Assembly: GCA_900544985.1 (NCBI GenBank)
Contig: UQXK01000001.1
Location: 13,459-77,458 of the forward strand
Reading direction: 5' to 3'
DNA from: an uncultured Eubacteriales bacterium
Lineage (GTDB): Bacteria > Bacillota > Clostridia > Oscillospirales > CAG-272
Length of the DNA: 64,000 nt
Below the pieces are notes generated by a model. The model saw only the letters and a program-made list of their open reading frames with translations, was not told where the DNA came from and did not search any database. Shown piece by piece: positions 5,364-30,368 of the stretch. The translations under genes and the position numbers were made by a program. Position 1 is the first letter of the stretch. The number at the start of each line of letters is the position of its first letter.

Positions 5364-5366
5364 AGC

Positions 5367-6117: not shown

Positions 6118-6119
6118 GC

Positions 6120-6731
6120 TTAGCCTCCCCAACCATTAAGCACACGTGTGATTTCGTGTTCTATACGTTTGTCAAATGTCTCTCTGATATGATTTGCTAT
6201 ATCCTCTGAAACGTCATCATTTGAGTCCATCATCTGTGTGGTTGCCGGTCCCCAAAATTGGCGAATAGGGAAGCGGTCATCACCGATTCTCTCGTAAATG
6301 CCAAGGCGATCTTTTTTTACAATAAAAGCATTTTCAAGAGTTTGTTTTGCAGAGCCTCTTTTTACTCTGACGGCTATTTTCCCGTCTTTACCGAAAGATG
6401 TGTCAAATCTTATCAACGGAATGTGGTAACCATGGAATTGAATACTGATTTCGGTAGCTCCCGATGCGTCGGTGACTATATGACGTATTTTTGATGTCGT
6501 ATATTCCTTGTAATCAGAAGCTTTTACAAGATATTCTTTGCGAACGGCTCTGGCAGCATAAGCTTCACCGCTTGACGAGGCTCTCTTCAAAGCAGAACCT
6601 ACTGCTTTTTTTACTCCTCCGGGAATTCCTGCAAGCAGTTTTTTTGCACGTTCAATAGTATCGCTTCCAACGTCATCTACCCGAAAATTGATTAACTCAT
6701 TATTTGCGCTAAGATAAATGTCATTCATCAT
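6120..6731 (-). CDS. Putative head-tail joining / minor structural protein
   Basis: ORF in the connector block. ATG ATG at 6731/6728 overlaps the stop of the upstream gene. No confident family call. Confidence 0.45.
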   Translation of the reverse strand: MMNDIYLSANNELINFRVDDVGSDTIERAKKLLAGIPGGVKKAVGSALKRASSSGEAYAARAVRKEYLVKASDYKEYTTSKIRHIVTDASGATEISIQFHGYHIPLIRFDTSFGKDGKIAVRVKRGSAKQTLENAFIVKKDRLGIYERIGDDRFPIRQFWGPATTQMMDSNDDVSEDIANHIRETFDKRIEHEITRVLNGWGG

Positions 6732-7095
6732 ATGCCTCCAATTCAAGGCTTACCATTCCGCTCGAACAAGTTGATGTTGCAATCTTATAACGGACAAAAA
6801 ATTTTTTGCCCAAAGCTTCGCCGTCGTCAATGGAAATTATTTGACCTTGTTCGGGTATTTTTCCGCCGATGTCCGATAATGCGATATGCAGTTTTGCCTG
6901 CACTCCGAAAATACCTTCGGCGTTTTGTATCGGCTTTTCAAGTTCTTTGACTTTAATATACAGGACGGGAATTCCGTCATGTTCTAAACCGTCATATGTT
7001 TCACCGTTATAAACGATTGTGTGTTTGTCCGCAAATTCTCCGTCGTTTAAAAAAACACCGAGAACATCGGATGTTAACATGTCTTTAAAACTCAT
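6721..7095 (-). CDS. Putative head-tail connector (head-closure) protein
   Basis: 124 aa with a 4-nt overlap with the upstream gene. Its position is equivalent to the lambda FII/head-closure genes. Confidence 0.45.
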   Translation of the reverse strand: MSFKDMLTSDVLGVFLNDGEFADKHTIVYNGETYDGLEHDGIPVLYIKVKELEKPIQNAEGIFGVQAKLHIALSDIGGKIPEQGQIISIDDGEALGKKFFVRYKIATSTCSSGMVSLELEAYDE

Positions 7096-7526
7096 ATTTT
7101 TACCGGATTTCCTGCCGACAGGATAAGAGAAAGTTCTATGGCGCCGAAATATTCATCAAGCGCGGCGATCATATCGGATTTTGACATTCCGACTTTAAAA
7201 GTTATGCCAACATCTTTTGCTATTGCTCGCAAATCTGAAACAGAAGACGTTGAATCATATTTGGGAATATCAATATCGTTGTTGTTAAAATCGTTCTTTG
7301 CAAGGATTTCTTTTTCGATAGTGCTATCACCGATTTTTTTATTTACTGTGTGATTTTCAAGCGTTGCAACCGTTGTCTTTTCGGCATATTTGGCAATTCC
7401 AAGTTCTATAATGCGATTTGCTTCTACATCGTCTAATTCAAATGCCACATCATCTATACCTTTGGCGCGAATGCCGTTGTTGGTTTTTAACCCGTAAAAT
7501 CCTTTTATTATTTTTACAAGTGCCAT
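7092..7526 (-). CDS. Hypothetical head-associated protein with C-terminal HeH/Rho_N-like motif
   Basis: 144 aa directly after the capsid gene. The C-terminal SDLRAIAKDVGITFKVGMSKSDMIAALDEYF resembles the Rho-N/SAP (HeH) motif. Confidence 0.45.
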   Translation of the reverse strand: MALVKIIKGFYGLKTNNGIRAKGIDDVAFELDDVEANRIIELGIAKYAEKTTVATLENHTVNKKIGDSTIEKEILAKNDFNNNDIDIPKYDSTSSVSDLRAIAKDVGITFKVGMSKSDMIAALDEYFGAIELSLILSAGNPVKI

Positions 7527-7553
7527 AGAGTCTCCTTTCTTTTATCTTTCGTT

Positions 7554-8624
7554 TTAGCCGACCACTTTTTGAGCGTAAATGTAAGGACAGTAATTTTTCG
7601 GAGCAGCGAGAGGTCTTGCGCCAAGACGCAGTTTGCGAATATCTCTATCCTGATCCAATACAAATTTCGGAACGCGTTTTGCTGCATATGTTGCAAAATT
7701 TTCAGAACCGTAATCGATCTGTGTGATCTGACCATACATCATATGACCACAGCCAGGAGCTGTAACCATAGCAGATGTCGCAGGGAAATACGGAGTATCT
7801 GCTCCATTCTCATTTTCATAGCTTTCAGAAACAGCCCAAAGCGTAAGCATAAAACCGCCGAAGTTAAGAACACCCATGCGAACAACGCCGGGGTAAGAGA
7901 TTGTCTGATTGATCTCTCCAACAATAATGCCAGAGTTTTTATCAAGCAAATCACGAACTTTCGATATTTCAAGAATTGCATCTGCGGCATCTATTCCAAG
8001 AACGAGATCGGCGGCAGGCAACCCGCGTCTTGCGAGTATATTGCACATCGCTCTGACATCTCCGAAGAAATCACTGTTAGCAGCATCCCATTTTGTGCCA
8101 ACTGTATATGTGTGTTCGGATGTCCCGTCATAGAATTGAACGAGATTTACATCTCCCTTTGTGTCAGCGTCTATATACTCTTCCATAGTGCAAGCGTTGT
8201 TGATCATTGTTTGAACCGCCATCCATTCTTCTCGGCGTTGAATGCGTCGGTCAAGATCTGTCAAATCGTCAAGCTGCAAACGAGCCGCGCGCTGTGCAGG
8301 AGTGCTTCCGGGATAAAATGCTTCTCCGAAACCGCGTTTTGTAAGATCATCTATCGTGAGAAGACGAGACGGGGCAATATATGCAGGCTGATATTCGTGA
8401 ATTTCATATCCTCTGCGTTCAACAGGAATATCACCGGCGCGCGGTGCTACAAAGCACGCCATTTTTCTATCACCTTTGCGATACTCTGTCAACACTTTAT
8501 CACAGGCGAAAATGTCATTTGCACCTGTCGGGAAATAACGATCGCGGAAGAACGTTGCTTGGGGGACAATTTCTTCCGTAATCGCCATAAGCATATAGTT
8601 ATCAAAAAAGTTAAGTTCGGGCAT
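7554..8624 (-). CDS. Major capsid protein (lambda gpE-like family)
   Basis: 356 aa. The N-terminus MPELNFFDNYMLMAITEEIVPQATFFRDRYFP..DKVLTEYRKGDRKMACFVAPRAGDIPVERRGY matches the gpE-family signature. It follows a gpD-like gene. Confidence 0.9.
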   Translation of the reverse strand: MPELNFFDNYMLMAITEEIVPQATFFRDRYFPTGANDIFACDKVLTEYRKGDRKMACFVAPRAGDIPVERRGYEIHEYQPAYIAPSRLLTIDDLTKRGFGEAFYPGSTPAQRAARLQLDDLTDLDRRIQRREEWMAVQTMINNACTMEEYIDADTKGDVNLVQFYDGTSEHTYTVGTKWDAANSDFFGDVRAMCNILARRGLPAADLVLGIDAADAILEISKVRDLLDKNSGIIVGEINQTISYPGVVRMGVLNFGGFMLTLWAVSESYENENGADTPYFPATSAMVTAPGCGHMMYGQITQIDYGSENFATYAAKRVPKFVLDQDRDIRKLRLGARPLAAPKNYCPYIYAQKVVG

Positions 8625-14862: not shown

Positions 14863-15466
14863 CTGTATGCTCGGTTGTTTCGAGCTTCAATCTTTCGCGT
14901 ACTTTTTCTTGATATTTTGCCGCATCGTATTTATAGTTAGACAATTCCTCCATCACCTTATAAACTTCGCACTCTATAATAGAAGACGCCTCTGCGGAAT
15001 CTTTTGCAGAAACAACATCAACGGCAAGTCTGCCGGGCAAAGCAAGCAAGGCACTACGAATAGCAAAAATTAAATCCTCTGTCATTGCTGCCACATCTTC
15101 GGAACGGTGCATTTTTCCGAGGCGCTCTTTTGCTTCGAGCGACGCAACCGTTGCTTTTGCCTGCTTAAATGTTGCCTCGGCTTTTCGTTTGATTGCTTCG
15201 ATCTCTTGCTCCTTATCATTCTTTTCTTCCGAGCGAGCATCAAGCATTTCAATATAGGAGCGAATTGTAGATGACAATTCGTACAAAGCACCATGTGGTG
15301 TTTGCTTCTTATAAAGAATACCTTGACTCGTCAGCTGTCCAATCCATTGATTGCTTTTTCCTGTTATCGCACAAATATCAGCTGTTTTTAAATATATAGG
15401 TGTGCCCGGTTGCAATACGTATATTGAATCGTCTTTAATGTCTGCAACCGATTTTGATTTCGCCAC
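14843..15466 (-). CDS. Terminase small subunit (Nu1-like)
   Basis: 207 aa overlapping the terL start by 20 nt. It has an N-terminal HTH-like LKTADICAITGKSNQWIGQLTSQGIL, comparable to the Nu1 winged HTH, followed by a coiled coil. GTG start with AAAGGAG 9 nt upstream. Confidence 0.7.
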   Translation of the reverse strand: MAKSKSVADIKDDSIYVLQPGTPIYLKTADICAITGKSNQWIGQLTSQGILYKKQTPHGALYELSSTIRSYIEMLDARSEEKNDKEQEIEAIKRKAEATFKQAKATVASLEAKERLGKMHRSEDVAAMTEDLIFAIRSALLALPGRLAVDVVSAKDSAEASSIIECEVYKVMEELSNYKYDAAKYQEKVRERLKLETTEHTDDDEEE

Positions 15467-15489
15467 AACAAATCGCTCCTTTCATTGTG

Positions 15490-15539
15490 AAAAAATAGCG
15501 GGCGGCTACCACCATTTTACGCTACTTATCAACCGCCCG
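15490..15539. other. GC-rich dyad CGGGCGG-N27-CCGCCCG upstream of terS (candidate cos region; alternatively a weak terminator)
   Basis: The plus strand reads aaaaaatagCGGGCGGCTACCAccattttacgctacttatcaaCCGCCCGg. GGGCGGCTACCA matches 10 of 12 positions of the lambda cohesive end GGGCGGCGACCT. It lies 25-70 nt upstream of a Nu1/GpA-type terminase operon. Confidence 0.4.
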
Positions 15540-15589
15540 GAGTTTTTCGCAACCCGCTTAAAATAGATGGCGGGATATTTATAAAGGTT

Positions 15590-15811
15590 TCAAGATTTAC
15601 TTTTACCGTATTTATCAACATGGAAAGTGTCTTCCCAATTACGGTATCTATCGCGCTCAACCACATCGGGAGTGCATTGTTTGTTACATCGTTTATTATT
15701 TCGCATGCAAATACATAAATTTTTTCCGTCTTTATTGTCAATAAAGACTTTTATGTATTCAATGCCAAGCTTCTCATTCAAAACCTCTCCTCCTGTGGTT
15801 GTATTTTTCAA
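15590..15811 (-). CDS. Hypothetical small protein
   Basis: 73-aa ORF with a 4-nt ATGA overlap with the upstream ORF 15808..15990. Cys-rich (CICMRNNKRCNKQC). No family recognised. Confidence 0.35.
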   Translation of the reverse strand: MKNTTTGGEVLNEKLGIEYIKVFIDNKDGKNLCICMRNNKRCNKQCTPDVVERDRYRNWEDTFHVDKYGKSKS

Positions 15812-15990
15812 TTAAAGTTCCCGATTTTTCCTTCGGTAACTGAGTGAAATTTGGGGTCGACGAGCCCGCAAGGTTTTCCAAGTCTTTCACAGTACCTTGA
15901 CAGGCAGAGCCGCCGATTGCAACGCGACGAATTGCCCCGAAGAGAGTTTTTGGAATTGTCCGAGAAGGATAACTCGATATAATTCTTCAT
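15808..15990 (-). CDS. Hypothetical small protein
   Basis: 60-aa ORF, 26 nt downstream of the IbrB-like gene, coupled to the next ORF. Confidence 0.3.
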   Translation of the reverse strand: MKNYIELSFSDNSKNSLRGNSSRCNRRLCLSRYCERLGKPCGLVDPKFHSVTEGKIGNFN

Positions 15991-16016
15991 ACGCTCTACG
16001 GGGCTATAAGTGTATC

Positions 16017-16535
16017 TTAAAGTTTGGTGAGCAATTCGGCATTGCTATGTTTTGTCATTCCTTTGCTCATCATGGCAAGGAAATCATCTTTTGAAAAGTC
16101 GGACAGTCGGAATACTTCTTCGGGTTTCATTCCGAGCTGCTTGCTGATCTCGTCTACCGATTTGTTTTCGTCCATCAATCTTTTAACGATGGCTTTCATT
16201 GGTTCGAGAAGATGAGTTCCGCGAGCGCGGTTATGCGTTACAGTTCCGTATATATCTTCCGACTTGTCTTTGTGATCTACGATTACCACGGGAACTTTAC
16301 CGTTTAACATAGAAAGAAGAGGTTCTTCTCCCGATACCGTCCATCTGTGGAATCCATCTATGATCGTATAATCAGGACGTACAACAATTGGTAGAGTCCA
16401 TCCATTTGTTAATATTGATTGAGCAAGCAGTTTGAGATTTTCTTTGCTAACCTTGTTTGGGTTGTAATCATTAGGGTGTAACAGATTTCTATCAACCCAT
16501 TGTAATGATCCTAAGGGCGCGAATATATCAGCCAT
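16017..16535 (-). CDS. ParB-N (sulfiredoxin-fold) domain protein, IbrB-like
   Basis: 172 aa. LLHPNDYNPNKVSKENLKLLAQSILTNGWTLPIVVRPDYTIIDGFHRW is a ParB/Srx N-terminal domain signature. It overlaps the IbrA-like gene by 8 nt. Confidence 0.8.
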   Translation of the reverse strand: MADIFAPLGSLQWVDRNLLHPNDYNPNKVSKENLKLLAQSILTNGWTLPIVVRPDYTIIDGFHRWTVSGEEPLLSMLNGKVPVVIVDHKDKSEDIYGTVTHNRARGTHLLEPMKAIVKRLMDENKSVDEISKQLGMKPEEVFRLSDFSKDDFLAMMSKGMTKHSNAELLTKL

Positions 16536-17682
16536 TTATCTCGCCTCCTTTCTGGAAGCGTTTGCTGTCTTCTACATAATGGCAGAAGACATCTTGAAAA
16601 ACGGCGCGCAATGTTCTTGTCTTGGGATCTCCCGCAAGCAGACCATCATAAAGTTTTCTATAATCACGTGGTCGTGCCATGCCCTCAATTTTTATAAGGG
16701 CTCTTCGATATTGTTCAGCAACATGCTTTTGATGATCCGTATGAAAATACTTACCGGGATTCTTGATGAGCATATCGATAAGCTCGGATTTGTAGTCTCT
16801 ATCGTCGCGCTTTTCCAATGACTGACGGTTGCGTGTGCTACGTCCGAACATTTCGCTATCCCAATATAAAGCGGCAAGGTAGGCGTTTGGCTCTCTCCTT
16901 ATTACGCGTTCCATAAGGTCAGGATAGTATTCGTTCATTCGTACAAGACACGCAGCCGTGTCAGAAGAAAAGAATTGTGACACACGGAGTTGTCCTTTTC
17001 CAATTCCTGCTTGCCACATATAAAGATAAATACTCGGTATCTCTATATGTTCTTCTTTGAGATATAACCATACATCGCTTGTCTTCCAGTCATAGATTGG
17101 ATAGATCTGTCTGTTCCCCGTGATGCCTTTGGCGCCCATATTTAAGGCCGCCATATATTGAAGACGCTGTATGGATTCAGCCGCTCTCACGCCTGTCATC
17201 ATTATCCCGCCTTTTGTAACTCTCGGCAGGAACGCTTGATAGTTATCTGCACGAGGTTTTAGAAGCGGGTGTGATCTCACAGCGAATGGCGGCGGTTGTC
17301 TTACCCAAACGTCGCTTTTGGTACTATCCCAACAGATAAATGATTCATCTGACGTCAGCTGGTTAAAGCAGTTGAAGTGTCGGACTTCAAGACAGTACCA
17401 ATCAAATTTTGTGCCGGCAAGAAGAAATTTCTTACGCCATGTTTTCACAGTTTCTTCGATGCAGGGAAATATAGCCTCTTCATCAATGAATAATACTGTG
17501 AGCTGAGAAGCGTTTATTTCGCCAGAGCACAGTAGGGAATAGACAAGCTGCGCAATGCACAAACTGTCTTTTCCTCCGGAGAATGACATATATACAGGCA
17601 AGCCGTTTGCAAATACATTTTTGATTCGCTTTTTTGCCGCTGTAACGACATCCATATCAGATTTAACGCGCTTTACAGCCAT
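16528..17682 (-). CDS. PAPS-reductase-family PP-loop protein, IbrA-like (long C-terminal extension)
   Basis: 384 aa with the PP-loop motif YMSFSGGKDSLCIAQLV. The architecture, with a ~150-aa helical C-terminal extension, resembles IbrA-type proteins. Confidence 0.85.
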   Translation of the reverse strand: MAVKRVKSDMDVVTAAKKRIKNVFANGLPVYMSFSGGKDSLCIAQLVYSLLCSGEINASQLTVLFIDEEAIFPCIEETVKTWRKKFLLAGTKFDWYCLEVRHFNCFNQLTSDESFICWDSTKSDVWVRQPPPFAVRSHPLLKPRADNYQAFLPRVTKGGIMMTGVRAAESIQRLQYMAALNMGAKGITGNRQIYPIYDWKTSDVWLYLKEEHIEIPSIYLYMWQAGIGKGQLRVSQFFSSDTAACLVRMNEYYPDLMERVIRREPNAYLAALYWDSEMFGRSTRNRQSLEKRDDRDYKSELIDMLIKNPGKYFHTDHQKHVAEQYRRALIKIEGMARPRDYRKLYDGLLAGDPKTRTLRAVFQDVFCHYVEDSKRFQKGGEING

Positions 17683-18320
17683 ATTTTTTCACCGCATTTC
17701 GGACAGACAACAAAACTTCTGCCGGAATTTTCCTCTCTGCGGTTGTTGTCAACATTACTATCGGCAATATACTGCGATGCTTGCGGTGTGTACTGTTGTT
17801 CGTAAATAGCTTGCTGTGTATGATTGTTAGGCGCTTCGTATTTCATGCTTGCGTTTCTAATATTTTCAGCTTCTTCCTCATCTATCTTGCCATATTCCGA
17901 AAGTACTTCGGTCATATCGCTGTTATCCATGAGAAGAGATTTAAGAAAATCGTCGTCATAACCAGGTATATCCAAGTCTTCGCTTAATTCTGCTAAAATT
18001 TCATCAAATGCTGATATATTGTCAACGCCAAGATTAAAGATTCGATTGTCAGCGATCATAAGTTTTTTCTTATCATTTTCGCTTAAATCTGTTATCTTGT
18101 TGCAAAACGCCTCGGTCCATCCCAAAGCCATCATTGCCATATACATACCATTACCGGTAAGGATGACATTGTTTTCATCTATGGTTAAAGGTTTTACCTG
18201 TTTGAATTTTTGTAAAGAACGCTTATATTCTTTGATTTGCGCTTCGGGGTGTGTGCGAACGTTCTTTTCTGATGGTTTTAGGTCTGCAAGTTTGAATTTT
18301 TCAATTTTCAATTTCGTCAC
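17673..18320 (-). CDS. ParB-N nuclease-like domain protein with C-terminal zinc ribbon
   Basis: 215 aa. FKLADLKPSEKNVRTHPEAQIKEYKRSLQKFKQVKPLTIDENNVILTGNGMYMA is a ParB-N signature. It has an acidic linker and ends in VVCPKCGEKIWL. Confidence 0.75.
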   Translation of the reverse strand: MTKLKIEKFKLADLKPSEKNVRTHPEAQIKEYKRSLQKFKQVKPLTIDENNVILTGNGMYMAMMALGWTEAFCNKITDLSENDKKKLMIADNRIFNLGVDNISAFDEILAELSEDLDIPGYDDDFLKSLLMDNSDMTEVLSEYGKIDEEEAENIRNASMKYEAPNNHTQQAIYEQQYTPQASQYIADSNVDNNRREENSGRSFVVCPKCGEKIWL

Positions 18321-19102
18321 CTCCTTTCTTCAAGGAAGCGGCGAGCGCTTTCTATTTTTATCGCGGCATTCTCAACGATAGACGGGTCAATATTATAGAC
18401 TTCGCTCCATCCGTTTTCTATACTTCCACACCATTGCCTTGCAGGCCACGGGTGCGTGCCGCATAAATATCCGTTCTTCCAATCATAAATAGGGGGAACA
18501 GGAATATTGTTGTAGTGAATATATGCAAGGATATGCTCGTGTTTCCAATCAGCAAGAGGGCTATATCGTAGAACACCCTTGCCGTCTGTATACTCATTAC
18601 CTTTCCCGGTGTAATTTCCGTCTGCGTGTCTACGACCAAGAATTAAAACATCAAGATTTTGTTTCTTATAGTAAATGCGCTGTGCGGTATGCTGTACTAT
18701 TGAAAACCACCTGGCAGCTTTGACGCTGTTTTTGGGAAATAGCATATCGAGATGACGGGAGAGCCAGTCAAGCCCAAGCTCAATGCGAACAATCTCGCAT
18801 TCTTTCGGCTTATTTAGTTCAATCCACGTCATAAACGCGGGATATTCGAAATCGCATACCCCGATCATACTTTGATGAATCCCTGCAATTTCGCAAAGTT
18901 TTCCAAGGACTATGCTGTCCTTGCCACCGCTCCAAGCGTACGCGGCGTTTTTGTCTTTAACAAAATTGGTTATTTGCGAAATTGTTTCAACAGCCAACTC
19001 ATCTATTTCGGATTTGCTGACAGTTTCCTCTATATGTTTGATTGCTTCGAGCCAGTCATCGTTTTTGATAGACTGTTTTCTTCCAAGCGGTTTTATTGGC
19101 AT
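18317..19102 (-). CDS. PAPS-reductase-family PP-loop protein (second paralog)
   Basis: 261 aa with the PP-loop AYAWSGGKDSIVLGKLCE. Its ATG lies inside the last codons of the transporter gene (10-nt overlap), with AAGGAGG 7 nt upstream. Confidence 0.8.
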   Translation of the reverse strand: MPIKPLGRKQSIKNDDWLEAIKHIEETVSKSEIDELAVETISQITNFVKDKNAAYAWSGGKDSIVLGKLCEIAGIHQSMIGVCDFEYPAFMTWIELNKPKECEIVRIELGLDWLSRHLDMLFPKNSVKAARWFSIVQHTAQRIYYKKQNLDVLILGRRHADGNYTGKGNEYTDGKGVLRYSPLADWKHEHILAYIHYNNIPVPPIYDWKNGYLCGTHPWPARQWCGSIENGWSEVYNIDPSIVENAAIKIESARRFLEERR

Positions 19103-20469
19103 TTCATCGCCTCCTTTTTAGAGACAATGAGTGCTACAATCCCGCTGATAAATACAGTTGCGAGACTTCCAATCGTTTTGTAAAGGGCAATTCCTAAAAT
19201 GTTGCCATATGCAAAAATCGGTAATCCGATAATTGCAGATGCCAAAATTCCGTAAAAAACACCGTTTGCCGATATTCTTTTCCCGAGAAGCGTCATAACG
19301 GTAGGGAGTAATGTTGTTGCTCTGATTGTGCAATAAAACAGAAACAGATGCGTAACCGTAAGACCTGGAATATTCGCTATGCCGATGCCGAACAATAACA
19401 AAATTAGCATACTTCCTTTTGCGACTTTGATGTTTCCTCCAAAATCACTTGTAAGAGAAGCTACTGCGCAAAGATTACTGTCAACAGTAGAAAGAAGTCC
19501 CGAAATAACCATGAACAGAAAGGGAAGCATCACCCATTTTGGAAACAGATTTGTAATCAATTCAAAATTAACCATTCCCGTGTCTGTTGCAACATATCCG
19601 GAACCTGCGGCAATGTAGCCGAGAATTCCCATAGAGAGCGGGGCGATAGCAAACATCAACGCGCCGAGCACAAATGCTTTTCCTATTTTATTTTTTTTGA
19701 TAGAGAAAGCACGTTGCCAAAAACATTGATCTCCAAAAGGACCTGCAATCAATCCAATGGCTGTTGGAATACCGAATGACAACAGAACGGAAATGCCGTT
19801 CCCGTCAAAAAGACTCTTAAATTCTCCACTAATACCGCCCAATCCGTTTATAAGATTTGAAACACCGCCATCTACCGATAATGCCCACGGTACGAATACC
19901 GCGCAGGCGGCAAGCATGAGAATCATTTGAAGCGCGTCCGTTATAACAGAGGCTTTTATCCCCGAAAATTGAGAGTAGGAAAAGGCAATGACCGCGAGAA
20001 TTATTGTCATTACCCAAAATGGAATGCCTGTAATTGATGAAAGAATCTTACCGCCAGCGAGCAGTTGTACGCCCGTCGATAAGATCGAGAGTAGGGAAAG
20101 CTGACCGAGATATGCGTATCTTACTTTTTCGGATTTGTATTGAGTTGCCATAAAGTTCGAAAGTGTAATGCCCTCGGGCATTCGCTCCCTTATCCTTTTG
20201 GCAAAAGGCACGAATAGGATTAGACACGCCACGTTCGGTATAAGGAACCAAAACAGTCCCGGAATACCGTTTGAATATGCCTTTTCCGCCGATGTGAATA
20301 GTGCCGGTGCCCAAATCCAAGTAGCCGCAATGCTCATAGCCGCCTGCCACATTCCAAGTTTTCTGTTAGCTACGTGAAAGTTATCGGCGTCTTTACTTTT
20401 TCGCGAAAATAAAAAAGTTGCGCCGAGCATTATCGCCGTATATACGACGAGTACAATGATACCATACAT
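19093..20469 (-). CDS. Sodium:solute symporter (SSF) family transporter
   Basis: 458 aa with a polytopic membrane profile throughout. The N-terminus LGATFLFSRKSKDADNFHVANRKLGMWQAAMSIAATWIWAPALF is typical of SSF transporters. AAAGGAGGAG lies 6 nt before the ATG. Confidence 0.85.
   Translation of the reverse strand: MYGIIVLVVYTAIMLGATFLFSRKSKDADNFHVANRKLGMWQAAMSIAATWIWAPALFTSAEKAYSNGIPGLFWFLIPNVACLILFVPFAKRIRERMPEGITLSNFMATQYKSEKVRYAYLGQLSLLSILSTGVQLLAGGKILSSITGIPFWVMTIILAVIAFSYSQFSGIKASVITDALQMILMLAACAVFVPWALSVDGGVSNLINGLGGISGEFKSLFDGNGISVLLSFGIPTAIGLIAGPFGDQCFWQRAFSIKKNKIGKAFVLGALMFAIAPLSMGILGYIAAGSGYVATDTGMVNFELITNLFPKWVMLPFLFMVISGLLSTVDSNLCAVASLTSDFGGNIKVAKGSMLILLLFGIGIANIPGLTVTHLFLFYCTIRATTLLPTVMTLLGKRISANGVFYGILASAIIGLPIFAYGNILGIALYKTIGSLATVFISGIVALIVSKKEAMKCQ
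20313..20333. repeat. 21-nt exact direct repeat, copy inside the transporter CDS
   Basis: AAATCCAAGTAGCCGCAATGC on the plus strand. The same 21-mer occurs at 20525-20545. Confidence 0.95.
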
Positions 20470-20524
20470 GGTATCTCCTCCTTTTATTGTGATTTGTTAG
20501 CTTTCTGTTGGCGTACAGATGGCT

Positions 20525-20545
20525 AAATCCAAGTAGCCGCAATGC
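20525..20545. repeat. 21-nt exact direct repeat, copy in the transporter 5' leader
   Basis: AAATCCAAGTAGCCGCAATGC, identical to 20313-20333. In the mRNA sense its 5' end forms the 3' arm of a leader hairpin GUCGCAAUG-N10-CAUUGCGGC. Confidence 0.95.
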
Positions 20546-20581
20546 AAGGAGCAACATTGCGACAAATACCTCCTCCCGCGC

Positions 20582-20612
20582 ATAAAAATACCGCCCGGCT
20601 ATTGCCGGACGG
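20582..20612 (-). terminator. Intrinsic terminator between the late-regulator gene and the transporter operon
   Basis: The minus strand reads CCGTCCGGC-aata-GCCGGGCGG followed by TATTTTTAT. This is a 9-bp stem with one G-U pair. Confidence 0.6.
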
Positions 20613-20673
20613 TTGCTTGATAGAATTTTACGATAGTATTATAACACATACAGTCGGGACATTTGGGACAACT

Positions 20674-21084
20674 TTATTTTTTACCTTTTTCTGAACGATT
20701 CAAAAAACGATAGCACGCTTTTTTTACACTGTCATCGGTATTTCCGCCTCCGATAGACAACGCAATTTGATTCCATGTCATTAAATCTATAAATCTGTAT
20801 GACAATATCAATCGCATTTGATAGTCATCCACTGAGCTTATGTAAGCGTCAATATTTTTGCGTTCTGATATGTATTTTATCTGCTCGTTCTTGATTCTAT
20901 CTTTGAGTTCTACAATTAAAGGAACAAGTTCTTCAATTATATTCTTTGACGAAGACCCGCGAGGCATGCCACTGATATTCATTCCACCTGGTTCTAATTT
21001 TGATTCAAGATCCGCCAGCCTTAAACTATCTCTTTCTATCAGCTTGTTTAAATAATACAGTTTACTGAGTTCGCGTAATGTCAT
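20674..21084 (-). CDS. Phage late-gene transcriptional regulator (sigma-70 region-4-like; DUF1492/ArpU/RinA-type)
   Basis: MTLRELSKLYYLNKLIERD...DYQMRLILSYRFIDLMTWNQIALSIGGGNTDDSVKKACYRFL is a pattern typical of small Firmicutes phage activators. Likely start is the ATG at 21084. Confidence 0.6.
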   Translation of the reverse strand: MTLRELSKLYYLNKLIERDSLRLADLESKLEPGGMNISGMPRGSSSKNIIEELVPLIVELKDRIKNEQIKYISERKNIDAYISSVDDYQMRLILSYRFIDLMTWNQIALSIGGGNTDDSVKKACYRFLNRSEKGKK

Positions 21085-21493
21085 TATTTTCCTCCTCATC
21101 TATATAGTTTCGACCAAATATGCAATGGAAGTCTGCAATGGTCAAGTTGTATTTTTTCATAGCTATTTTTTGTGTCTCTTTTTGCAGCTCTCTGCATATT
21201 TCAGCATTTTTATGTACGGCATTATCTCCGAAAATATGGCAACTGAAATGGTGAAGATATACCGTCAGACCATATTTTTCGGATTTCTGCCTGTATGGAC
21301 CGAAGAATATATGGTGCTTGTCCAAAGGATCTGTTCCTGTTCCGTATCTGCCGCAGATATAACATCTGCGGCTGTCTTTTTGAATAATACTTTTAGCCAT
21401 TAAAATCTCCAAAATTTTATTATTTATTTGTATTTTGTGTGGATAGATTTTTTTTGCACTCTCAAAATCAACTCGATTAAATCTCTTTTTCAT
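21062..21493 (-). CDS. Cys/His-rich phage protein (HNH-like/zinc-binding), function unknown
   Basis: Contains RRCYICGRYGTGTDPLDKHHIFFGPYRQKSEKYGLTVYLHHFSCHIFGDNAVHKN. The start was trimmed to the ATG at 21493 because the upstream part overlaps a better small gene. Confidence 0.45.
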   Translation of the reverse strand: MKKRFNRVDFESAKKIYPHKIQINNKILEILMAKSIIQKDSRRCYICGRYGTGTDPLDKHHIFFGPYRQKSEKYGLTVYLHHFSCHIFGDNAVHKNAEICRELQKETQKIAMKKYNLTIADFHCIFGRNYIDEEENNDITRTQ

Positions 21494-21661: not shown

Positions 21662-22729
21662 TCAACCTCCTATCTTCCAATCGTCTTTTCGTACCGAAAA
21701 CGCATCTCCGCACTGTATAATGTCGGGGGAATTGCTATTCGCAATTTTTATCGCAAACTTGTCGATTTCGTAAGCAAAATACTTAACATTTGTAAATCCC
21801 ATTTTGTCAAGGCAATAACGACCTGTGCCGATACCATCGTACATGGAAAGACATAGTATATCTTCGTCCCTCGGCACATTCTTAAATGCACCGTTCAGAA
21901 TATGTATGATAACCTCAGCAGTCCAGCCGTTGCCAAGTCCCTTATATCTTTGCATGTTGCTGACCGATGCCGTATATCCATCTGGCAATGTTTGCAGACG
22001 TTCACATTCAACTGGGGTCAGCTTTCTGATAATATAACATCCGTCGGGCAGATTGATAGAATATACACGCCCTTTCACCTCGATCAATCCGTTTTTGACC
22101 TCATAAACCCTTTTAATGCTTTCTTTGTCTTTCCCCGATCCTGTAAACGGCGTTGGATGTTCGTCTGTCTTTATAGCAACACCACTTGCGCCATATGTCG
22201 AATCATAACAACAAATATTCTGAACACTTGTGAAACTGTATTGCGCTTTCAATGTTTGCGATTTTCCATCGGATGTTGTGTTGATCGGAACATATACAAG
22301 TGTTCTGACATGCTTCGATAAGTTATGTTCTAATGTACTTCCTTTTTGTTCAGTAGCAGTCAAACAGTAAGACTTTGATTGACAGCATACACCGCTTTCA
22401 AGAATATCCGCAAGAAGTATTCCACGATCATGCGGTTGATCGACTTTCCAATTAAAGGCATAGAATCGTTGTCGGTTTTGAGCGGATACAAGCGCGGAAT
22501 TTATGTACATCAAATCAGCGCCAAGTTCTTTTGATATTTCATCTTTTATCGGTTGGGCAGCGCTCTTGTTGTTTTCATACAAGAAGAAGTCAGGTTTGAA
22601 TTTTTCTTTTGCAATTACATAATTGCGAAAAAGCTCCCAACCTATACCGCTCGGCTCCGTTTCACGGTTGTTCTTTTGTGCTATACTCCATTTTGTACAT
22701 GGCGAGCCGCCAATCAAAAGTTTTATCAT
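21662..22729 (-). CDS. DNA (cytosine-5) methyltransferase, circularly permuted motif order (IV-X then I-III)
   Basis: Starts MIKLLIGGSPCTKWS (motif IV). FFLYENNKSA is motif VI, INSALVSAQNRQRFY is motif VIII, LQTLPDGYT is in the TRD/IX region, and GLGNGWTAEVIIHIL is motif X. Only after these come ILCLSMYDGIGTGRYCL (motif I), FAYEIDKFAIKIA (motif II) and QCGDA (motif III), and then the stop. ATGA overlap with the upstream ASCH gene at 22726-22729. Confidence 0.8.
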   Translation of the reverse strand: MIKLLIGGSPCTKWSIAQKNNRETEPSGIGWELFRNYVIAKEKFKPDFFLYENNKSAAQPIKDEISKELGADLMYINSALVSAQNRQRFYAFNWKVDQPHDRGILLADILESGVCCQSKSYCLTATEQKGSTLEHNLSKHVRTLVYVPINTTSDGKSQTLKAQYSFTSVQNICCYDSTYGASGVAIKTDEHPTPFTGSGKDKESIKRVYEVKNGLIEVKGRVYSINLPDGCYIIRKLTPVECERLQTLPDGYTASVSNMQRYKGLGNGWTAEVIIHILNGAFKNVPRDEDILCLSMYDGIGTGRYCLDKMGFTNVKYFAYEIDKFAIKIANSNSPDIIQCGDAFSVRKDDWKIGG

Positions 22730-23385
22730 CTCAACTCCTCTACATAACACCAGCTTTGAGGCGGACGGGTAAGTGTTTTTCTTTTGTTGGCTCCGCACCT
22801 TGTATATCCATTTATTGGATCATCATCAAAACAAAGATAACGGCAGTTTTTGCATGTTTTGTCCGTTGCATAGCCCGTTCCTTTGCAGAATGTTGCAAAA
22901 TCCGAAAGTTCTCGCGGTTTATCATAGATTACAATGTCAGATATGTGCCAGCCGTAAATTGTTTTACCTTTTGCATAAATGTTAATATCTTCTCGTTCGA
23001 GCTGAGTTTCCAAAAGGCTGTCATCATCTATATCTGTTCCGTCACAGTAGTCGTATGGATATTCGATAATATTGTCACACACAAACTCGCCGATTACTTT
23101 GCCCTCTGCGAGATAAGCATTGTACCGATATGCAGGCAAGTGGGGGTTTACATCAACGACATCTTTTCCGCTTCGCCAGTTACCAGTAACACCAAACTCT
23201 TTTCGCCCATATCCGCTATTGACATAAAGGTGTAGAGCGTTTTTGCGATTATCATGTGTGCAGTAAATATAACACTTAAACGGCGTCTCTATCTTCGGTC
23301 TTGTTTTTCTGACTTCAATTGTCTTTTTGACCGAAGCTATCAGTTCGCACCATTTCGGTTGTATGCTTGTCAGTACAGAGTTCAT
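22726..23385 (-). CDS. ASCH (PUA-like) domain protein
   Basis: MNSVLTSIQPKWCELIASVKKTIEVRKTRPK and the C-terminal LTRPPQSWCYV are characteristic of phage ASCH proteins. ATGA overlap at 23382-23385. Confidence 0.75.
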   Translation of the reverse strand: MNSVLTSIQPKWCELIASVKKTIEVRKTRPKIETPFKCYIYCTHDNRKNALHLYVNSGYGRKEFGVTGNWRSGKDVVDVNPHLPAYRYNAYLAEGKVIGEFVCDNIIEYPYDYCDGTDIDDDSLLETQLEREDINIYAKGKTIYGWHISDIVIYDKPRELSDFATFCKGTGYATDKTCKNCRYLCFDDDPINGYTRCGANKRKTLTRPPQSWCYVEELR

Positions 23386-23630: not shown

Positions 23631-24136
23631 TTGCAACAATCTCCTTTCAGCAATTCGGGGGTGTCGTAAATATTGCCGATGACTTCTGCCACTTCAAGAG
23701 GTTCATCATCTTGATGATAATTCCACCACAATTCCCAAATAGAGATGAAATTATCATTAAAGCAGAAATAAGCGTTGTTCTGGAACGGTATTTTGCTATC
23801 AAGTAAATCGTAATCTATCTGCTGCGTTGTTGCGATTCCAAACGCTCCGCACTCTTGAACGATTTTTCCACGCATATCGAAAAGCTCTACTATATCCCCC
23901 TCGAAAATCTTCTTACCGTTCTTGTCGGTCAAGCCTGTGTACTGACTGATTGTTTTATAATCAATTTCTATACTCTTGATGCCATTTGTGTTAGTCATTT
24001 CAGTAGGTAAATTTTCAAAGCGTTCATCGTATAACCGTGTTACTAATCCGTACACCCAATCGCCATTTTTATAGTTTGTTATGTAAAATCCCTTGTCGCG
24101 ATTTATTGCTTTTCCTCTGAACAAAATTTCTCTCAT
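23627..24136 (-). CDS. YopX family protein
   Basis: MREILFRGKAI...DKNGKKIFEGDIVE...VIGNIYDTPELLK is the YopX signature. ATGA overlap with the upstream gene. Confidence 0.8.
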   Translation of the reverse strand: MREILFRGKAINRDKGFYITNYKNGDWVYGLVTRLYDERFENLPTEMTNTNGIKSIEIDYKTISQYTGLTDKNGKKIFEGDIVELFDMRGKIVQECGAFGIATTQQIDYDLLDSKIPFQNNAYFCFNDNFISIWELWWNYHQDDEPLEVAEVIGNIYDTPELLKGDCCK

Positions 24137-25076
24137 TGTTTCTCCTCCATTAACATCTTCCACCTGAATTTTCGATTTGTTGGCACTTTACTCTCATCTT
24201 CGGCTCGAAAGCGGATGTCAAAGTCATGAACAGTATGCCCGTCCGGATGAAATGTCACGGGACTGTCATTGTCCCACTTTAAGAGCAAAGCCCACAACTC
24301 GGGATAGTTTCTGCGGAGTAGTCGGAGCCGGTCGATTCCTTGATTATGACAAAACCAACACCCGCCACGGGCTGATGTGGTGTAAATCGGGCTGAGAAGG
24401 TTATTCTCTTCGCACCATTTGCGACAATACGCTTCATCCCAACCGATCATCACAAGAGGGAGCATTTTGCCGGGAACAGAATGTCGTTTGATTCGTTCCG
24501 GCTCATCTGCGGCGATACCGAGATATTGAACAGTATTTATCTTTGCCCCCTGTTCAATGGGGCAAGAGGAAAACTCTCTTTTTGAGTTGTGTGTTGCACC
24601 AAATGCCGCGAATGATTGGAAATCCGTATATATTGGTCGAGGGCACTCGCTTTGAGCCTGCTTTGGCAGAACGGCATTGTCCTTCTCGGAAAACCGTATC
24701 GAATCCAATATCGCTCTCTGTTTGAGTTTTGAGTTGCAATGTGGGTGCCACATTGTTGGGAATCCTTCGATTGCTCTCTCTCTCTCCGTTTGGGCACATG
24801 GTAAAAAATTTTTTCGTATGTAAGTTTTTCGCCGTTTTTCATGGCACAAATATGTTCAACCTCAACACCATATCTCTCCTTGATGATCTTGTCGGCTTTC
24901 TTTTTGAACTCTACCATGGGCGGTAAATCTGCCGGAATACTATCGGTCGCCCACACCTCGGCGTGTACGATACGGTCGAGAGGCAGTCCGAGAAGCCGGA
25001 TAGCTTCAAGGCAAGCGAGGCTATCTTTGCCGTATGATAAAGATAGTACATATTGTGTGTTTGAATCACTTGTCAT
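24133..25076 (-). pseudogene. PAPS-reductase-family PP-loop protein (third paralog), split by a frameshift inside a (GA)6 tract
   Basis: The N-terminal part is ORF 24537..25076, with the PP-loop LSLSYGKDSLACLEAI up to ..YHVPKRRER. The C-terminal part is ORF 24133..24849, in the -1 frame, from ..RERAIEGFPTMWHPHCNSKLK to the end. The two frames meet at GGAGAGAGAGAGAGC. Removing one GA unit joins them into one ~313-aa protein. Confidence 0.75.
24774..24786. repeat. Dinucleotide tract (CT)6C on the plus strand, (GA)6G in the gene sense
   Basis: Plus strand 24773-24788 reads gCTCTCTCTCTCTCcg. It sits exactly at the frame change of the PAPS-reductase gene. Confidence 0.95.
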
Positions 25077-26543: not shown

Positions 26544-27431
26544 TTATGTTTCTTGTCCTTTATCTGCCAAATCAAGGTTTGCCGCAGCTTGTTCGAAATA
26601 ACTCTTTTTAAGTTCAATTCCAATGTGTCTGCGATTCATTTTAAGTGCCTGATACCCAGTCGATCCGATACCGTCAAATGGATCAAGTACGATTTCGCCC
26701 TCTCGGCTCCACAATTCAATACATCGTTCAATCACCGGTAACTGCAATGGGCAGATATGGCGTTCATCTTTTTCGCTTCGGGCACTTTTTCTCTGTAATG
26801 TTGCACTTTGATTTATGTCCCACCATACTGGCGTTGCATATTCATCCCACACAGGGGAGGCTATCTGTTGCCAATGTGATACAGGGTATTCTTCGGGTTC
26901 ATGACAAAGCGGCTCCGGATTTGTCCCGGGTTTTCTAAAAGTACAGATAAAATCCGGTATGCCTTGTCTGCTCATAGCAGAGTCTTTTTTTAGTTGTTTC
27001 CACAAAAGACCGAGAGCTTTTGTGCGCTGCATTGCTGTTACGGGATTTTTCCAAATACATACCTCAGAATGATAGATGAATCCGAGCGACTGCATCCAGC
27101 GAATTACATCGCCGCGGAAGTCTCTTATTCCTATTACGCCATCTTTTTCTTTTGATGTAGGCAAGTTCATACAATGGATCGAGACAAGACGTCCCGGCAT
27201 CATGACACGGAACCATTCAGTACCGAGAAATTTATAGTGTTCCGCGAATTCGTCATATGTTCTGCTATTTCCCATATCCCTATCGCTATTTGAATATGTA
27301 TAAAGTGATGCGAAAGGAATAGAAGTAATGCAGTAGTGAATACTGTTAGATGGAATTCCCGCAAGTACCTCACAAGAATCGCCATTATATAACACATAAT
27401 TATTTCCTCTGACTTGATCTAAAACTTTCAT
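26544..27431 (-). CDS. DNA methyltransferase, beta-class (N6-adenine or N4-cytosine)
   Basis: 295 aa. The catalytic-type motif CITSIPFASLY is near the N-terminus and the AdoMet motif VLDPFDGIGSTGYQALKMNRRHIGIEL is near the C-terminus. ATGA overlap with the SNF2 gene. Confidence 0.85.
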   Translation of the reverse strand: MKVLDQVRGNNYVLYNGDSCEVLAGIPSNSIHYCITSIPFASLYTYSNSDRDMGNSRTYDEFAEHYKFLGTEWFRVMMPGRLVSIHCMNLPTSKEKDGVIGIRDFRGDVIRWMQSLGFIYHSEVCIWKNPVTAMQRTKALGLLWKQLKKDSAMSRQGIPDFICTFRKPGTNPEPLCHEPEEYPVSHWQQIASPVWDEYATPVWWDINQSATLQRKSARSEKDERHICPLQLPVIERCIELWSREGEIVLDPFDGIGSTGYQALKMNRRHIGIELKKSYFEQAAANLDLADKGQET

Positions 27432-28853: not shown

Positions 28854-30368
28854 TTATTTACCCAAGACTTCACCCAATTTCTTTTTAAGAAGCGCATCGA
28901 AATCATCTTCGGTTTCTTCGATGACTTCCTCAATTTCGTCGGTCTCGGTGTCTATTGCCTCATCCCCGGACTTTTTGTAAAGCGGGTGTGTCCCGTTTAA
29001 CATATGTTTTTCCTCATCGGACATTTCATATCCGAGAACACAAAGCCCTTGATACAGGCTTTTAAGTTTGGGATTTTCACGGTAATTGCCGCTCCAATCG
29101 ACACAGTTGTTATTGAAGCTATCGCACCATTGCGCATATACGTTCATCAGAAGAGCTTTTTCCGGGTGTTTATCTATGAATTCCGCAACCTTAGCCCAAT
29201 CATCATTATTTTTGATATCAAACAGTTCCTTGAACCTATCTATGCTTGCTTGTACGGTGGAGTATCCAGAAAACAGTCCCTGGCTCATCATCGATACAAT
29301 CTCGCGCAAACACATCCAGTCAGAAATTTTCTCGATATTTTTCTTACTGTCTCTATGTGAGTAATTTTTAATGAAGTTAAATCTTAACCAGAATGCACTT
29401 TTGGAAAGTTCGGAAAGTTGCTCTCTTCTTGTGCGTTCTTCATCGCGCCTTTTCTGCTCCTCGCGCTCTGATCCTTCGGTTTCTTCGGTCATTACTTTAT
29501 CGGCGCGAATGTATGGTATATCGTTGTAGCCCCATGCAAAGTAGAGCTTATCGTGGCTTTTTGCATATTCTGCAATCTTTTCATTGCTTGGCTCACCGTC
29601 AAGATAACCGAGAGATTTATACTGCTCATTCCAGATATCGTTGTATGAGATTTCCTCCATACCAAATGTTTCAAATATCTTTTGCCATTCTAATTTTCTC
29701 TTTTTCCCGTTTTGCGCGTTGAGTGCTTTTTGAAACTCTCGGTTGAAGTTGTTGGTTCCAATTTCGCAGAGGACTTTGTTTCTTGTATCAATATCCTCAA
29801 TTTGAGAGAGCATATCATAATCCATTAGCGAGGCCTGTCGTCCGGATACATTTTTCAGTGTTTCTCCGTCCAATTCTGCTATTTTCAATCGGCGGCGAAT
29901 AGTGGATTTTGAAAATCCTGTTTTTTCGGCAACAGCATCAATACTATCGCCAAAATCCATCATCATTTGGAATCCCTGTGCTTGCTCATAAATTGTTAGG
30001 TCTTCTCGTTGCATATTTTCCAAAAGCATGGTTTGAACCTGTTCGGCAGGAGTCATCTTGGCAATGACGCAGGGAAGCGTTTTTAGTCCTGCCGCCTTTG
30101 CTGCTTCAAGACGTCTATTTCCTATTACAACAAGATATCCAATTTCAGCTTGCTGTTTCGGATCGTCGCATCCCACCCCAGTCGTTTGAAACCAAAAAGG
30201 AACGACTGTTAGATTTTGCAAAACACCTTTTGCCTTTATGCTTTCCGTGAGTTCTGTCAAGTCTCCTAAACTCTTACGCGGATTGTCGTGATGATGGTGT
30301 AGCAGACTAACGGGTATATTGACTATTTCTCCCGTGACTTCTTCTGTGTATACAAACTTATTTTCCAT
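28854..30368 (-). CDS. ParB-N domain protein with long C-terminal extension
   Basis: 504 aa. IPVSLLHHHHDNPRKSLGDLTELTESIKAKGVLQNLTVVP...VVIGNRRLEAAKAAGLKTLPCVI is a ParB/Spo0J N-terminal signature, followed by HTH-like FSKSTIRRRLKIAEL. Confidence 0.8.
   Translation of the reverse strand: MENKFVYTEEVTGEIVNIPVSLLHHHHDNPRKSLGDLTELTESIKAKGVLQNLTVVPFWFQTTGVGCDDPKQQAEIGYLVVIGNRRLEAAKAAGLKTLPCVIAKMTPAEQVQTMLLENMQREDLTIYEQAQGFQMMMDFGDSIDAVAEKTGFSKSTIRRRLKIAELDGETLKNVSGRQASLMDYDMLSQIEDIDTRNKVLCEIGTNNFNREFQKALNAQNGKKRKLEWQKIFETFGMEEISYNDIWNEQYKSLGYLDGEPSNEKIAEYAKSHDKLYFAWGYNDIPYIRADKVMTEETEGSEREEQKRRDEERTRREQLSELSKSAFWLRFNFIKNYSHRDSKKNIEKISDWMCLREIVSMMSQGLFSGYSTVQASIDRFKELFDIKNNDDWAKVAEFIDKHPEKALLMNVYAQWCDSFNNNCVDWSGNYRENPKLKSLYQGLCVLGYEMSDEEKHMLNGTHPLYKKSGDEAIDTETDEIEEVIEETEDDFDALLKKKLGEVLGK

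Follow-up and report, generated by a model that had tools for sequence, protein, structure and literature searches.

IbrA/IbrB-type pairs, in which a prophage-encoded PP-loop gene of the phosphoadenosine phosphosulfate (PAPS) reductase superfamily is followed by a small gene for a protein with an N-terminal ParB domain (ParB-N), are common in phage genomes and appear in searchable papers and records only as annotation labels. A relative of these pairs is carried by a prophage in DNA of an uncultured Eubacteriales bacterium (GenBank assembly GCA_900544985.1, contig UQXK01000001.1, positions 13,459 to 77,458 of the forward strand); the whole of this 64,000-nucleotide stretch is called the window below. 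The locus is a five-gene module on the minus strand, and it departs from IbrA/IbrB in having a second, different PP-loop/ParB pair, in being led by a dedicated membrane transporter of the sodium:solute symporter family (SSF), and in its fixed position at the start of the late operon. The linkage to an importer narrows the search for the chemistry of IbrA/IbrB-type proteins and offers an experimental handle on them.

Another described arrangement that invites comparison is that of DndB/DndC (and of SspD and the BREX type 4 protein BrxP), where, as in the window, a PP-loop ATP pyrophosphatase is encoded beside a ParB-superfamily protein of the DGxHR type. The likeness to DndC and BrxP extends to partial hidden Markov model (HMM) matches and invariant cysteines in the second PP-loop enzyme of the module (PP-loop 2). 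Unlike Dnd, the window module is phage-borne and putatively late-expressed. Its transporter sets it further apart, as Dnd systems have none and a comparative reappraisal of their gene neighbourhoods speaks of none. In profile searches, the module genes included neither a DndA (or IscS), DndD or DndE partner nor any restriction component. In 7-deazaguanine modification (bacterial Dpd, phage DpdA), the ParB-like ATPase DpdB aids the enzyme that installs a small-molecule-derived DNA modification (PMC12839542), and a ParB-like helper together with small-precursor chemistry is also what is proposed here. The enzymes of the module are PP-loop proteins, however, its transporter is SSF-type, and no tRNA-guanine transglycosylase (TGT)/DpdA-type enzyme occurs among the examined genes. 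Finally, the first ParB-like protein of the module (ParB-like 1) can be aligned with the ParB part of the phage ParB-N/DNA methyltransferase fusions of phrog_498, which likewise lie just upstream of terminase genes and in which a ParB domain accompanies a DNA-modifying enzyme. Here the ParB protein is separate and bears a zinc ribbon, and its neighbour is a PP-loop enzyme rather than an S-adenosylmethionine-dependent methyltransferase.

No paper in the searchable literature links a transporter to IbrA/IbrB or to PAPS-reductase/ParB pairs, and neither the transporter-linked module nor its leader RNA is described there; the word "transporter" is absent from the original paper on Faecalibacterium phage FP_Taranis (Taranis), one of the carriers described below. 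An earlier reading of the window from its letters alone (the first-pass annotation) could name no characterised phage system joining an importer to these enzymes, and this agrees with what the searchable literature holds. The component families are known and are singly annotated in public records; their combination with a transporter, and the leader RNA, are undescribed in that literature. The module is best placed with the IbrAB/DndBC-type PP-loop/ParB pairs, as a variant with a transporter.

Conservation of the five-gene module

Five open reading frames (ORFs) are chained on the minus strand of the window, in the order SSF, PP-loop 1, ParB-like 1, PP-loop 2, ParB-like 2:

20469 to 19093, minus strand: SSF transporter, 458 amino acids (aa), sodium:solute symporter family
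19102 to 18317, minus strand: PP-loop enzyme 1 (PP-loop 1), 261 aa, PAPS-reductase superfamily, motif AWSGGKDS; an optional module member
18320 to 17673, minus strand: ParB-like 1, 215 aa from a GTG start, C-terminal CPKCG
17682 to 16528, minus strand: PP-loop enzyme 2 (PP-loop 2), 384 aa, IbrA/DndC-like, motif SFSGGKDS, helical C-terminal extension
16535 to 16017, minus strand: ParB-like 2, 172 aa, ParB/Srx fold, IbrB-like

The genes and the motifs AWSGGKDS, SFSGGKDS and CPKCG are read in the sequence where the first-pass annotation had placed them, as are the AAGGAGG Shine-Dalgarno sequence and the ATG of PP-loop 1 within the last codons of the SSF gene. That annotation had also chained all five genes by overlaps of 4-10 nucleotides (nt). 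As called, the overlaps are 10, 4, 10 and 8 nt in the 5' to 3' direction along the operon; those of 10, 10 and 8 nt stand, and the 4-nt overlap is probably a 5-nt gap. Public gene calls for near-identical proteins begin ParB-like 1 at TTG 18311 (212 aa, MKIEKF), and this is the likely true start, since TTG 18311 lies 8 nt past GGAGG while GTG 18320 abuts the Shine-Dalgarno sequence. The chain is still tight with the TTG start, and the five genes are translationally chained.

This arrangement recurs well beyond the window. A search seeded with the transporter, run over one-genome-per-species bacterial contigs and IMG/VR, yielded 160 loci whose SSF proteins share 59-88% identity with the seed, some of these loci being duplicated between the two collections. 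With 8 context loci added, the counted set came to 168, of which 146 had at least 3.6 kb of downstream DNA. PP-loop 1, ParB 1, PP-loop 2 and ParB 2 follow in this order at 125 of these 146 loci, a further 17 are without PP-loop 1 only and keep the last three partners, and 4 are evident deletion derivatives. When PP-loop 2 served as the seed, an SSF gene was present in 55 of the 58 loci with enough upstream DNA. Among representatives of a 50%-identity library, the linkage holds down to SSF identities of 39-44%, with the genes then ordered differently, for example ParB, SSF and an IbrA-like gene with DUF3440 (L249), or SSF, an unknown protein of about 200 aa, PP-loop, ParB, ParB, PP-loop and terS (L252 and L253). 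The protein between SSF (39% identical) and PP-loop in the latter two loci (L252:5751-6350, L253:1841-2461; 199-206 aa) has no family match.

Across the loci sampled, no fewer than three gene orders and three terminase backbones are seen with this association. A GpA-type terminase like that of the window is found in about one third of the loci, and the others have different packaging modules, such as a Terminase_3-like one in L026 and, in Anaerovorax, a terminase and portal of another kind. Hosts belong to the Oscillospiraceae, the Lachnospiraceae and Anaerovorax, with one Clostridioides difficile chromosome; recorded names include Ruminococcus, Anaerotruncus, Flavonifractor, Agathobaculum, Dysosmobacter, Acetatifactor, Agathobacter and Hungatella. 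Carriers in tractable hosts are Taranis (Faecalibacterium prausnitzii), a prophage of Anaerotruncus colihominis DSM 17241 and a C. difficile prophage. Median ratios of nonsynonymous to synonymous substitution rates (dN/dS) fall at 0.05-0.09 for all five genes (SSF 0.09, ParB-like 1 0.08, ParB-like 2 0.06), and all five are under purifying selection.

The transporter itself can be displaced. In L232 and L234, the gene before PP-loop 1 encodes not an SSF protein but a 331-aa multipass membrane protein that has no Pfam, NCBIfam or PHROG family and shows faint similarity, as do its relatives of 331-333 aa, to the first SSF helices. Its identity to gp35 of the cultured phage Taranis, a protein annotated "transporter membrane protein", is 42%, and the Taranis genes run in the order RinA-like activator, gp35, ParB, PAPS reductase (IbrA), ParB (IbrB), terS, terL. 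Two loci of Lachnospiraceae type, and only these, have a further gene between PP-loop 1 and ParB 1, encoding a class-II glutamine amidotransferase (GATase_6/7, N-terminal MCGIFG). Glutamine-derived ammonia is a classical co-substrate of PP-loop enzymes paired with amidotransferases. The coordinates of these variants are:

L232:4578-5573: 331-333-aa membrane family, in the SSF slot
L254:4326-5327: 331-333-aa membrane family (Taranis gp35), in the SSF slot
L026:10173-10766: glutamine amidotransferase insertion
L034:10193-10777: glutamine amidotransferase insertion

The swapping of a membrane protein at a fixed slot argues strongly that the module needs transport. A transporter-less variant is also seen, at L270 (minus strand, about 4454-8372), where the leader RNA is followed by a distant IbrA-like gene, an NPPY DNA methyltransferase gene, small ORFs, an IbrB-like gene, a ParB gene with a zinc ribbon, terS and terL. 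The first-pass annotation had regarded the transporter as hard-wired into the operon and had asked whether its adjacency to a PAPS-reductase gene recurs in related prophages or is unique to this genome. It recurs at more than 140 loci, in several orders, backbones and host families, and the conserved linkage together with displacement by a second membrane-protein family makes the transporter part of the unit rather than a chance neighbour. We are highly confident that the module is real, conserved and functionally coupled.

The component proteins

By its sequence and modelled fold, the SSF protein is a LeuT-fold member of the sodium:solute symporter family (PF00474, TC 2.A.21). It scores 83.5 bits against PF00474 (cut-off 22.8), with residues 31-408 covering profile positions 1-403 of 406, and it falls in phrog_20720 ("unknown function") with an E-value of 1.5e-182. 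Its AlphaFold2 (AF2) model has a predicted local distance difference test score (pLDDT) of 87.5 and a predicted template-modelling score (pTM) of 0.87. The alignments show a conserved S327-T328 within "GLLSTVDSN", which we take to lie in the Na2-site helix of solved SSF proteins. In Foldseek comparisons, template-modelling scores (TM-scores) of 0.72-0.83 were obtained to CHT1, SiaT, SGLT2, DUR3 and NIS, at 15-20% identity. These solved neighbours carry choline, sialic acid, sugars (glucose), urea and iodide, and all are equally similar to the model. Scores against the PanF, PutP and ActP equivalogs are 74.1, 66.9 and 31 bits (cut-offs 328, 515.5 and 1099). What the window protein shares with PutP, PanF, SiaT, vSGLT/SGLT, CHT1, DUR3 and NIS is therefore the fold and the family signature, at 15-20% identity to each solved member and under all equivalog cut-offs. 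The profile and structure searches that the first-pass annotation had proposed assigned no substrate class: every equivalog fell below its cut-off, sequence matches in the Protein Data Bank (PDB) were weak and mixed, and the Foldseek neighbours are chemically unrelated.

The clade to which this transporter belongs is small, with 250 clusters at E <= 1e-30 among 1.84 billion representatives. All relatives sampled at 39-88% identity are phage-borne, and all are module-linked wherever flanking DNA sufficed; in L244 (40% identity) it was too short to judge. L246, at 33% identity, was the one cellular relative sampled; its gene stands by itself, and the neighbours were uninformative when its context was read for a substrate. 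Members of 212 aa in the SSF cluster, considered as truncated or pseudogene SSF forms, proved to be ParB-like 1 proteins drawn in by one SSF-ParB fusion. An in-frame SSF/ParB-like 1 fusion with PP-loop 1 deleted is found at L290:651-2657 (P0399, 668 aa), known from a single low-coverage 3-kb metagenomic contig, and could be a Rosetta-stone fusion or an assembly or deletion artefact.

Both PP-loop proteins are, from their sequences, members of the PP-loop ATP-pyrophosphatase-type superfamily, with partial matches to PF01507 of 40.7 bits (PP-loop 1) and 43.9 bits (PP-loop 2) against a cut-off of 22.5. PP-loop 1, of phrog_424, weakly matches the yeast PAPS reductase 2oq2 (E 1.5e-5). Its invariant positions are SGGKDS, GRR..DGN and T216-H217, and Cys214 ("CGTHPWP") is nearly so, being the sole cysteine present in at least 90% of the sequences. 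Against the CysH equivalogs, the two enzymes score 22.4 and 17.4 bits for NF002537 (cut-off 154), and a score of 19.2 bits was obtained for TIGR02057 (cut-off 254). The motif ECG[LI]H, which we take to be the C-terminal catalytic-cysteine motif of CysH, is missing from both PP-loop translations.

In PP-loop 2, of phrog_2302 (E 1e-89), SxxKDS and Cys97, Cys105 and Cys117 are invariant. Its partial DndC and BrxP HMM matches have E-values of about 1e-10 (PADLOC DndC, 3e-10), and it scores 25.7 bits against the DndC equivalog TIGR03183 (cut-off 290.4). The AF2 model has a pLDDT of 76. The best folds for it are the [4Fe-4S] tRNA thiolases NcsA/TtuA, the PAPS domain of FAD synthase, TilS and LarE; with TM-scores of about 0.3, the fold search gave only generic PP-loop neighbours and no specific function. 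PP-loop 2 matches 222 phage-collection records and is 44.5% identical to the RAST-annotated IbrA of Taranis and about 28% identical to Streptococcus phage IbrA. The first-pass description of this enzyme as IbrA-like stands on these identities and on the shared PHROG 2302. As for the DUF3440 part (PF11922) of the IbrA architecture, the window protein has no match to it at E <= 0.01, and the 369-aa homologue from L249, of the same PHROG, has one at E 1e-12. "IbrA/IbrB-like" would seem a fair label at family distance.

Turning to their partners, ParB-like 2 is the best-conserved protein of the module (median identity 77% across loci). It matches PF02195 at 32.5 bits (cut-off 26.3) and phrog_2159 at E 1e-69, and its conserved motifs are IIDGFHRW, which resembles the DGQHR motif of DndB, and THNRARGTHLLEPMK. 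Its gene lies directly 3' of PP-loop 2 with the 8-nt overlap, as in the IbrA/IbrB arrangement of prophages. ParB-like 1 has no Pfam match; it belongs to phrog_620 ("ParB-like", E 3e-41), matches the N-terminal ParB portion of proteins in which ParB is fused to a methyltransferase (PADLOC MTase_II, E 3e-14), and ends in a CPxCG zinc ribbon. Canonical CTP-binding partition ParB proteins carry the arginine patch GERRxRA; at the GERR position, ParB-like 1 has ILTGNGMY, without arginine, and ParB-like 2 has DGFHR. Judged by these residues, neither looks like a partition ParB. No protein of the module reaches family membership as CysH, DndC or partition ParB.

Possible functions of the module

The reading that we tentatively favour, at slightly less than even odds, is a late-expressed phage module for DNA or nucleotide modification that depends on an imported donor. 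The five genes would be expressed together as one functional module heading the phage late operon. PP-loop 2, with PP-loop 1 as an accessory, would act shortly before packaging, adenylating a site in replicated phage DNA or in a precursor nucleotide, and a sulfur- or nitrogen-containing group would then be transferred to the adenylated site. Both ParB-fold partners would bind DNA and target or gate the PP-loop enzymes, and the Na+-coupled importer, or its 331-aa alternative, would bring in a donor or precursor undersupplied by the host cell. Analogues for such a ParB role are DndB for DndC, DpdB for DpdA, and the ParB domains for the methyltransferases to which they are fused. A DNA context is supported by the position of the module, always just before terS. 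DNA would indeed be the most economical target in view of the methyltransferases of the window phage, the ParB parallels, the transporter-less NPPY variant and this pre-terminase position. Likewise, the importer coupling, the second transporter family and the occasional glutamine amidotransferase suggest that a small, potentially limiting molecule takes part in the chemistry.

Several points weigh against this proposal. DNA as the target is inferred from context and parallels rather than from direct evidence, and profile searches found no base-exchange enzyme, cysteine desulfurase or DndD/E-type partner in the module. Both PP-loop enzymes score far under the DndC and CysH equivalog cut-offs, and neither profiles nor PDB sequences nor Foldseek assign a substrate to the transporter. 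Late synthesis would also leave an importer of 13 helices only a short time to work during infection. IbrA/IbrB occur without a transporter in Streptococcus phage CHPC1230 and in 5 of 35 loci found through the leader RNA, so the core chemistry would not always depend on an imported molecule; PP-loop 2 also has matches in many cultured phages of other hosts, which may be further such cases. To our knowledge, moreover, the sole experimental literature on IbrA/IbrB concerns activation of prophage gene expression, not DNA chemistry. A bolder form of the proposal is exogenous-metabolite-dependent hypermodification of phage nucleic acid, with an importer (SSF or the 331-aa protein) bringing in a compound from the surroundings, Fe-S/PP-loop enzymes joining this compound, or the part of it that contains S or N, to adenylated DNA positions, and ParB/Srx guidance. 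We consider it possible but rather doubtful. If true, it would provide the first biochemical function for IbrA/IbrB-type proteins, and virion DNA chemistry would be set by environmental supply in the gut or rumen.

It is also conceivable that the pairs are regulators of the IbrA/IbrB type, acting as co-activators or DNA clamps for late expression or packaging-site recognition, with the transporter supplying a ligand or signal. Some ParB-family proteins are DNA-sliding transcription regulators, homologues in Taranis and Streptococcus phages bear the SEED label "co-activator of prophage gene expression IbrA/IbrB", and the module adjoins the late regulator, behind a conserved promoter, terminator and structured leader. 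The catalytic motifs of both PP-loop enzymes are conserved, however, which points to catalysis over scaffolding; the late promoter-like element precedes the genes, which would thus be products of the late switch and not its trigger; and the rare glutamine amidotransferase insertion indicates small-molecule chemistry. Such a regulatory role appears improbable to us, and we give no greater credence to manipulation of host defences or nucleotide pools, in which a host nucleotide, cofactor or immune signal would be depleted or altered and the transporter would move a related metabolite in or out. That PP-loop enzymes use up ATP would fit the latter, as would the movement of the module among unrelated phage backbones like an accessory cassette and the proposal that ParB/Srx proteins of conflict systems are nucleotide-limiting NTPases or nucleases (PMC10853773, PMC12839542). 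Yet no component matches a known defence or anti-defence family beyond superfamily level, anti-defence genes are usually early while this module heads the late operon, and its near-obligate five-gene organisation is more pathway-like than a single inhibitor.

A purely metabolic role, in which CysH-like sulfur assimilation and a nutrient importer serve as auxiliary metabolic genes that enhance the metabolism of the infected or lysogenic host, with no direct role on DNA, would agree with the PHROGs category of both enzymes ([quoted passage not shown]), with the weak match of PP-loop 1 to yeast PAPS reductase, and with gut-virome papers that class phage PAPS reductases as sulfur-metabolism genes. 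The bit scores speak otherwise (17-22 bits where the CysH equivalogs demand 154-254), and PP-loop 1 is without ECGLH, the catalytic-cysteine motif of CysH. This most CysH-like enzyme is, moreover, dispensable, being missing from 17 of 146 loci; each enzyme is paired with a ParB-fold, DNA-associated protein; and we know of no sulfate or sulfonucleotide transporters in the SSF family. This role is accordingly quite unlikely in our estimate, and the sulfur-metabolism label used in gut-virome studies is probably wrong for this enzyme class. Least credible of all is a chance neighbourhood, with the transporter a moron inserted beside an IbrAB-like cassette. The uniform composition, the transporter's own Shine-Dalgarno sequence and rare deletion variants (L003, L020, L083, L226) could be cited for it, and it is refuted by the comparative data, namely the more than 140 loci in several orders and backbones, displacement by a second transporter family, overlapping reading frames and purifying selection.

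The leader RNA and the genomic surroundings

The first-pass annotation had the unit preceded by its own leader, and promoter-like, terminator-like and covarying hairpin elements are indeed found there. In the window they are as follows:

20638-20646, minus strand: putative extended -10 promoter-like element, TG-T-TATAAT
20621-20632, minus strand: conserved -10-like element, CGTAAAATTCTA, read from sequence
20590-20613, minus strand: G+C-rich hairpin with U-run, terminator-like, 10 pairs of which 8 are G-C (consensus scan)
20505-20577, minus strand: structured leader RNA of three conserved elements, which are the next three
20569-20577, minus strand: Shine-Dalgarno-like GGGAGGAGG; consensus across leaders GGAAAGGAGG
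20536-20563, minus strand: leader hairpin, loop UUGCUCCUU, complementary to AGGAG-type Shine-Dalgarno sequences
20505-20518, minus strand: small leader hairpin, loop ACGCCA; across loci (A/U)CGCCA(A/G)

The order is thus a -10-like pair, the terminator-like hairpin, the Shine-Dalgarno-like element, the CUCCUU hairpin, the small hairpin and the true Shine-Dalgarno sequence. The arrangement TGnTAyrmT plus GTAAAATyCTAA recurs upstream of the module in many related loci, and the terminator-like hairpin, which sits between the promoter-like element and the module, has equivalents in related leaders. The loop of the leader hairpin reads UUNCUCCUU as RNA across loci; we take CUCCUU to mimic the 3' end of 16S rRNA. 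Among 34 non-identical leaders, which hold 30 distinct arm sequences, there are 32 in which the arms around CTCCTT form better pairings than shuffled versions do (z < -1.5), and RNAalifold gave this hairpin 6 pairs, 5 of them with compensatory changes. No Rfam family reached its gathering threshold anywhere in the window, and with the limit relaxed to E <= 5 the region 15300-21200 gave no relevant match.

Scanning IMG/VR with the motif as seed located the leader at 35 viral loci, all immediately 5' of the module. The gene that follows it is SSF in 22, the 331-aa protein in 8 and directly the distant IbrA-like gene in 5; the leader is also seen at L254:4130-4325 and L232:4400-4575. Since the same leader stands before three different first genes, it belongs to the module or late operon and is not tied to the transporter. 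A riboswitch for the transporter's ligand was rejected on the same ground, the leader occurring before the 331-aa protein and before the transporter-less IbrA-like gene; it may nonetheless sense a ligand in some other way. The promoter/terminator layout appears to resemble that of lambda-type late antitermination, and the leader may act in antitermination or translational control of the late operon. Possibly, this RNA represents a novel cis-regulatory element in the late operons of phages.

The genes around the module bear out its earlier placement between a late-activator gene and the terminase genes, and are listed here with the other features of the region:

21099 to 20674, minus strand: late transcriptional regulator, directly upstream of the module; phrog_36 (E 4e-14), weak DUF1492 match
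15590-15811, minus strand: small Cys-rich ORF, 73 aa, TTG start, between ParB-like 2 and terS
15466 to 14843, minus strand: terS, downstream of the module; phrog_57 (E 3e-26)
14862 to 12943, minus strand: terL, GpA-type; homologues with GpA_ATPase and GpA_nuclease domains
21662-22798, 26544-27431 and 28854-30368, minus strand: two DNA methyltransferase genes and the gene of a 504-aa ParB

The gene at the position of the regulator in Taranis is annotated RinA-like. Homologues of the 73-aa Cys-rich ORF occur at the same position in 15 loci (tblastn, 42-73% identity); it has no family match in Pfam or PHROG profile searches and is possibly an accessory gene of the module. A terminator-like hairpin follows it at 15501-15513.

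Prophage origin, another element of the first-pass annotation, is supported by a lysogeny module: a helix-turn-helix (HTH) repressor-like gene at 38527-39105 and a large serine recombinase gene at 40460-42271, which together, at 38.5-42.3 kb, make the element a temperate phage, one of gut or rumen Clostridia. With a SWIM zinc-finger protein (39604-40227, plus strand), the recombinase (plus strand) marks the prophage's lysogeny end. The phage also encodes a C5-type and an N6/N4-type DNA methyltransferase and the 504-aa ParB, which has an HTH domain and homologues in 72 of the collected loci. Going by its predicted genes, this phage genome is unusually rich in DNA-modification and ParB functions. 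Elsewhere in the phage, residues 105-220 of the ORF at 24133-24849 (minus strand), which overlaps that at 24537-25076, resemble the C-terminal part of PHROG 424 (E 2e-19). The ORF has neither a PP-loop nor a Pfam match and no homologue among the other collected loci, and could be either a relic or a domain protein in its own right. Finally, outside the prophage, two long ORFs overlap on opposite strands (45885-49382, plus, 1165 aa; 45915-49535, minus, 1206 aa) in a region of G+C up to 0.49, the plus-strand ORF being without a Pfam match.

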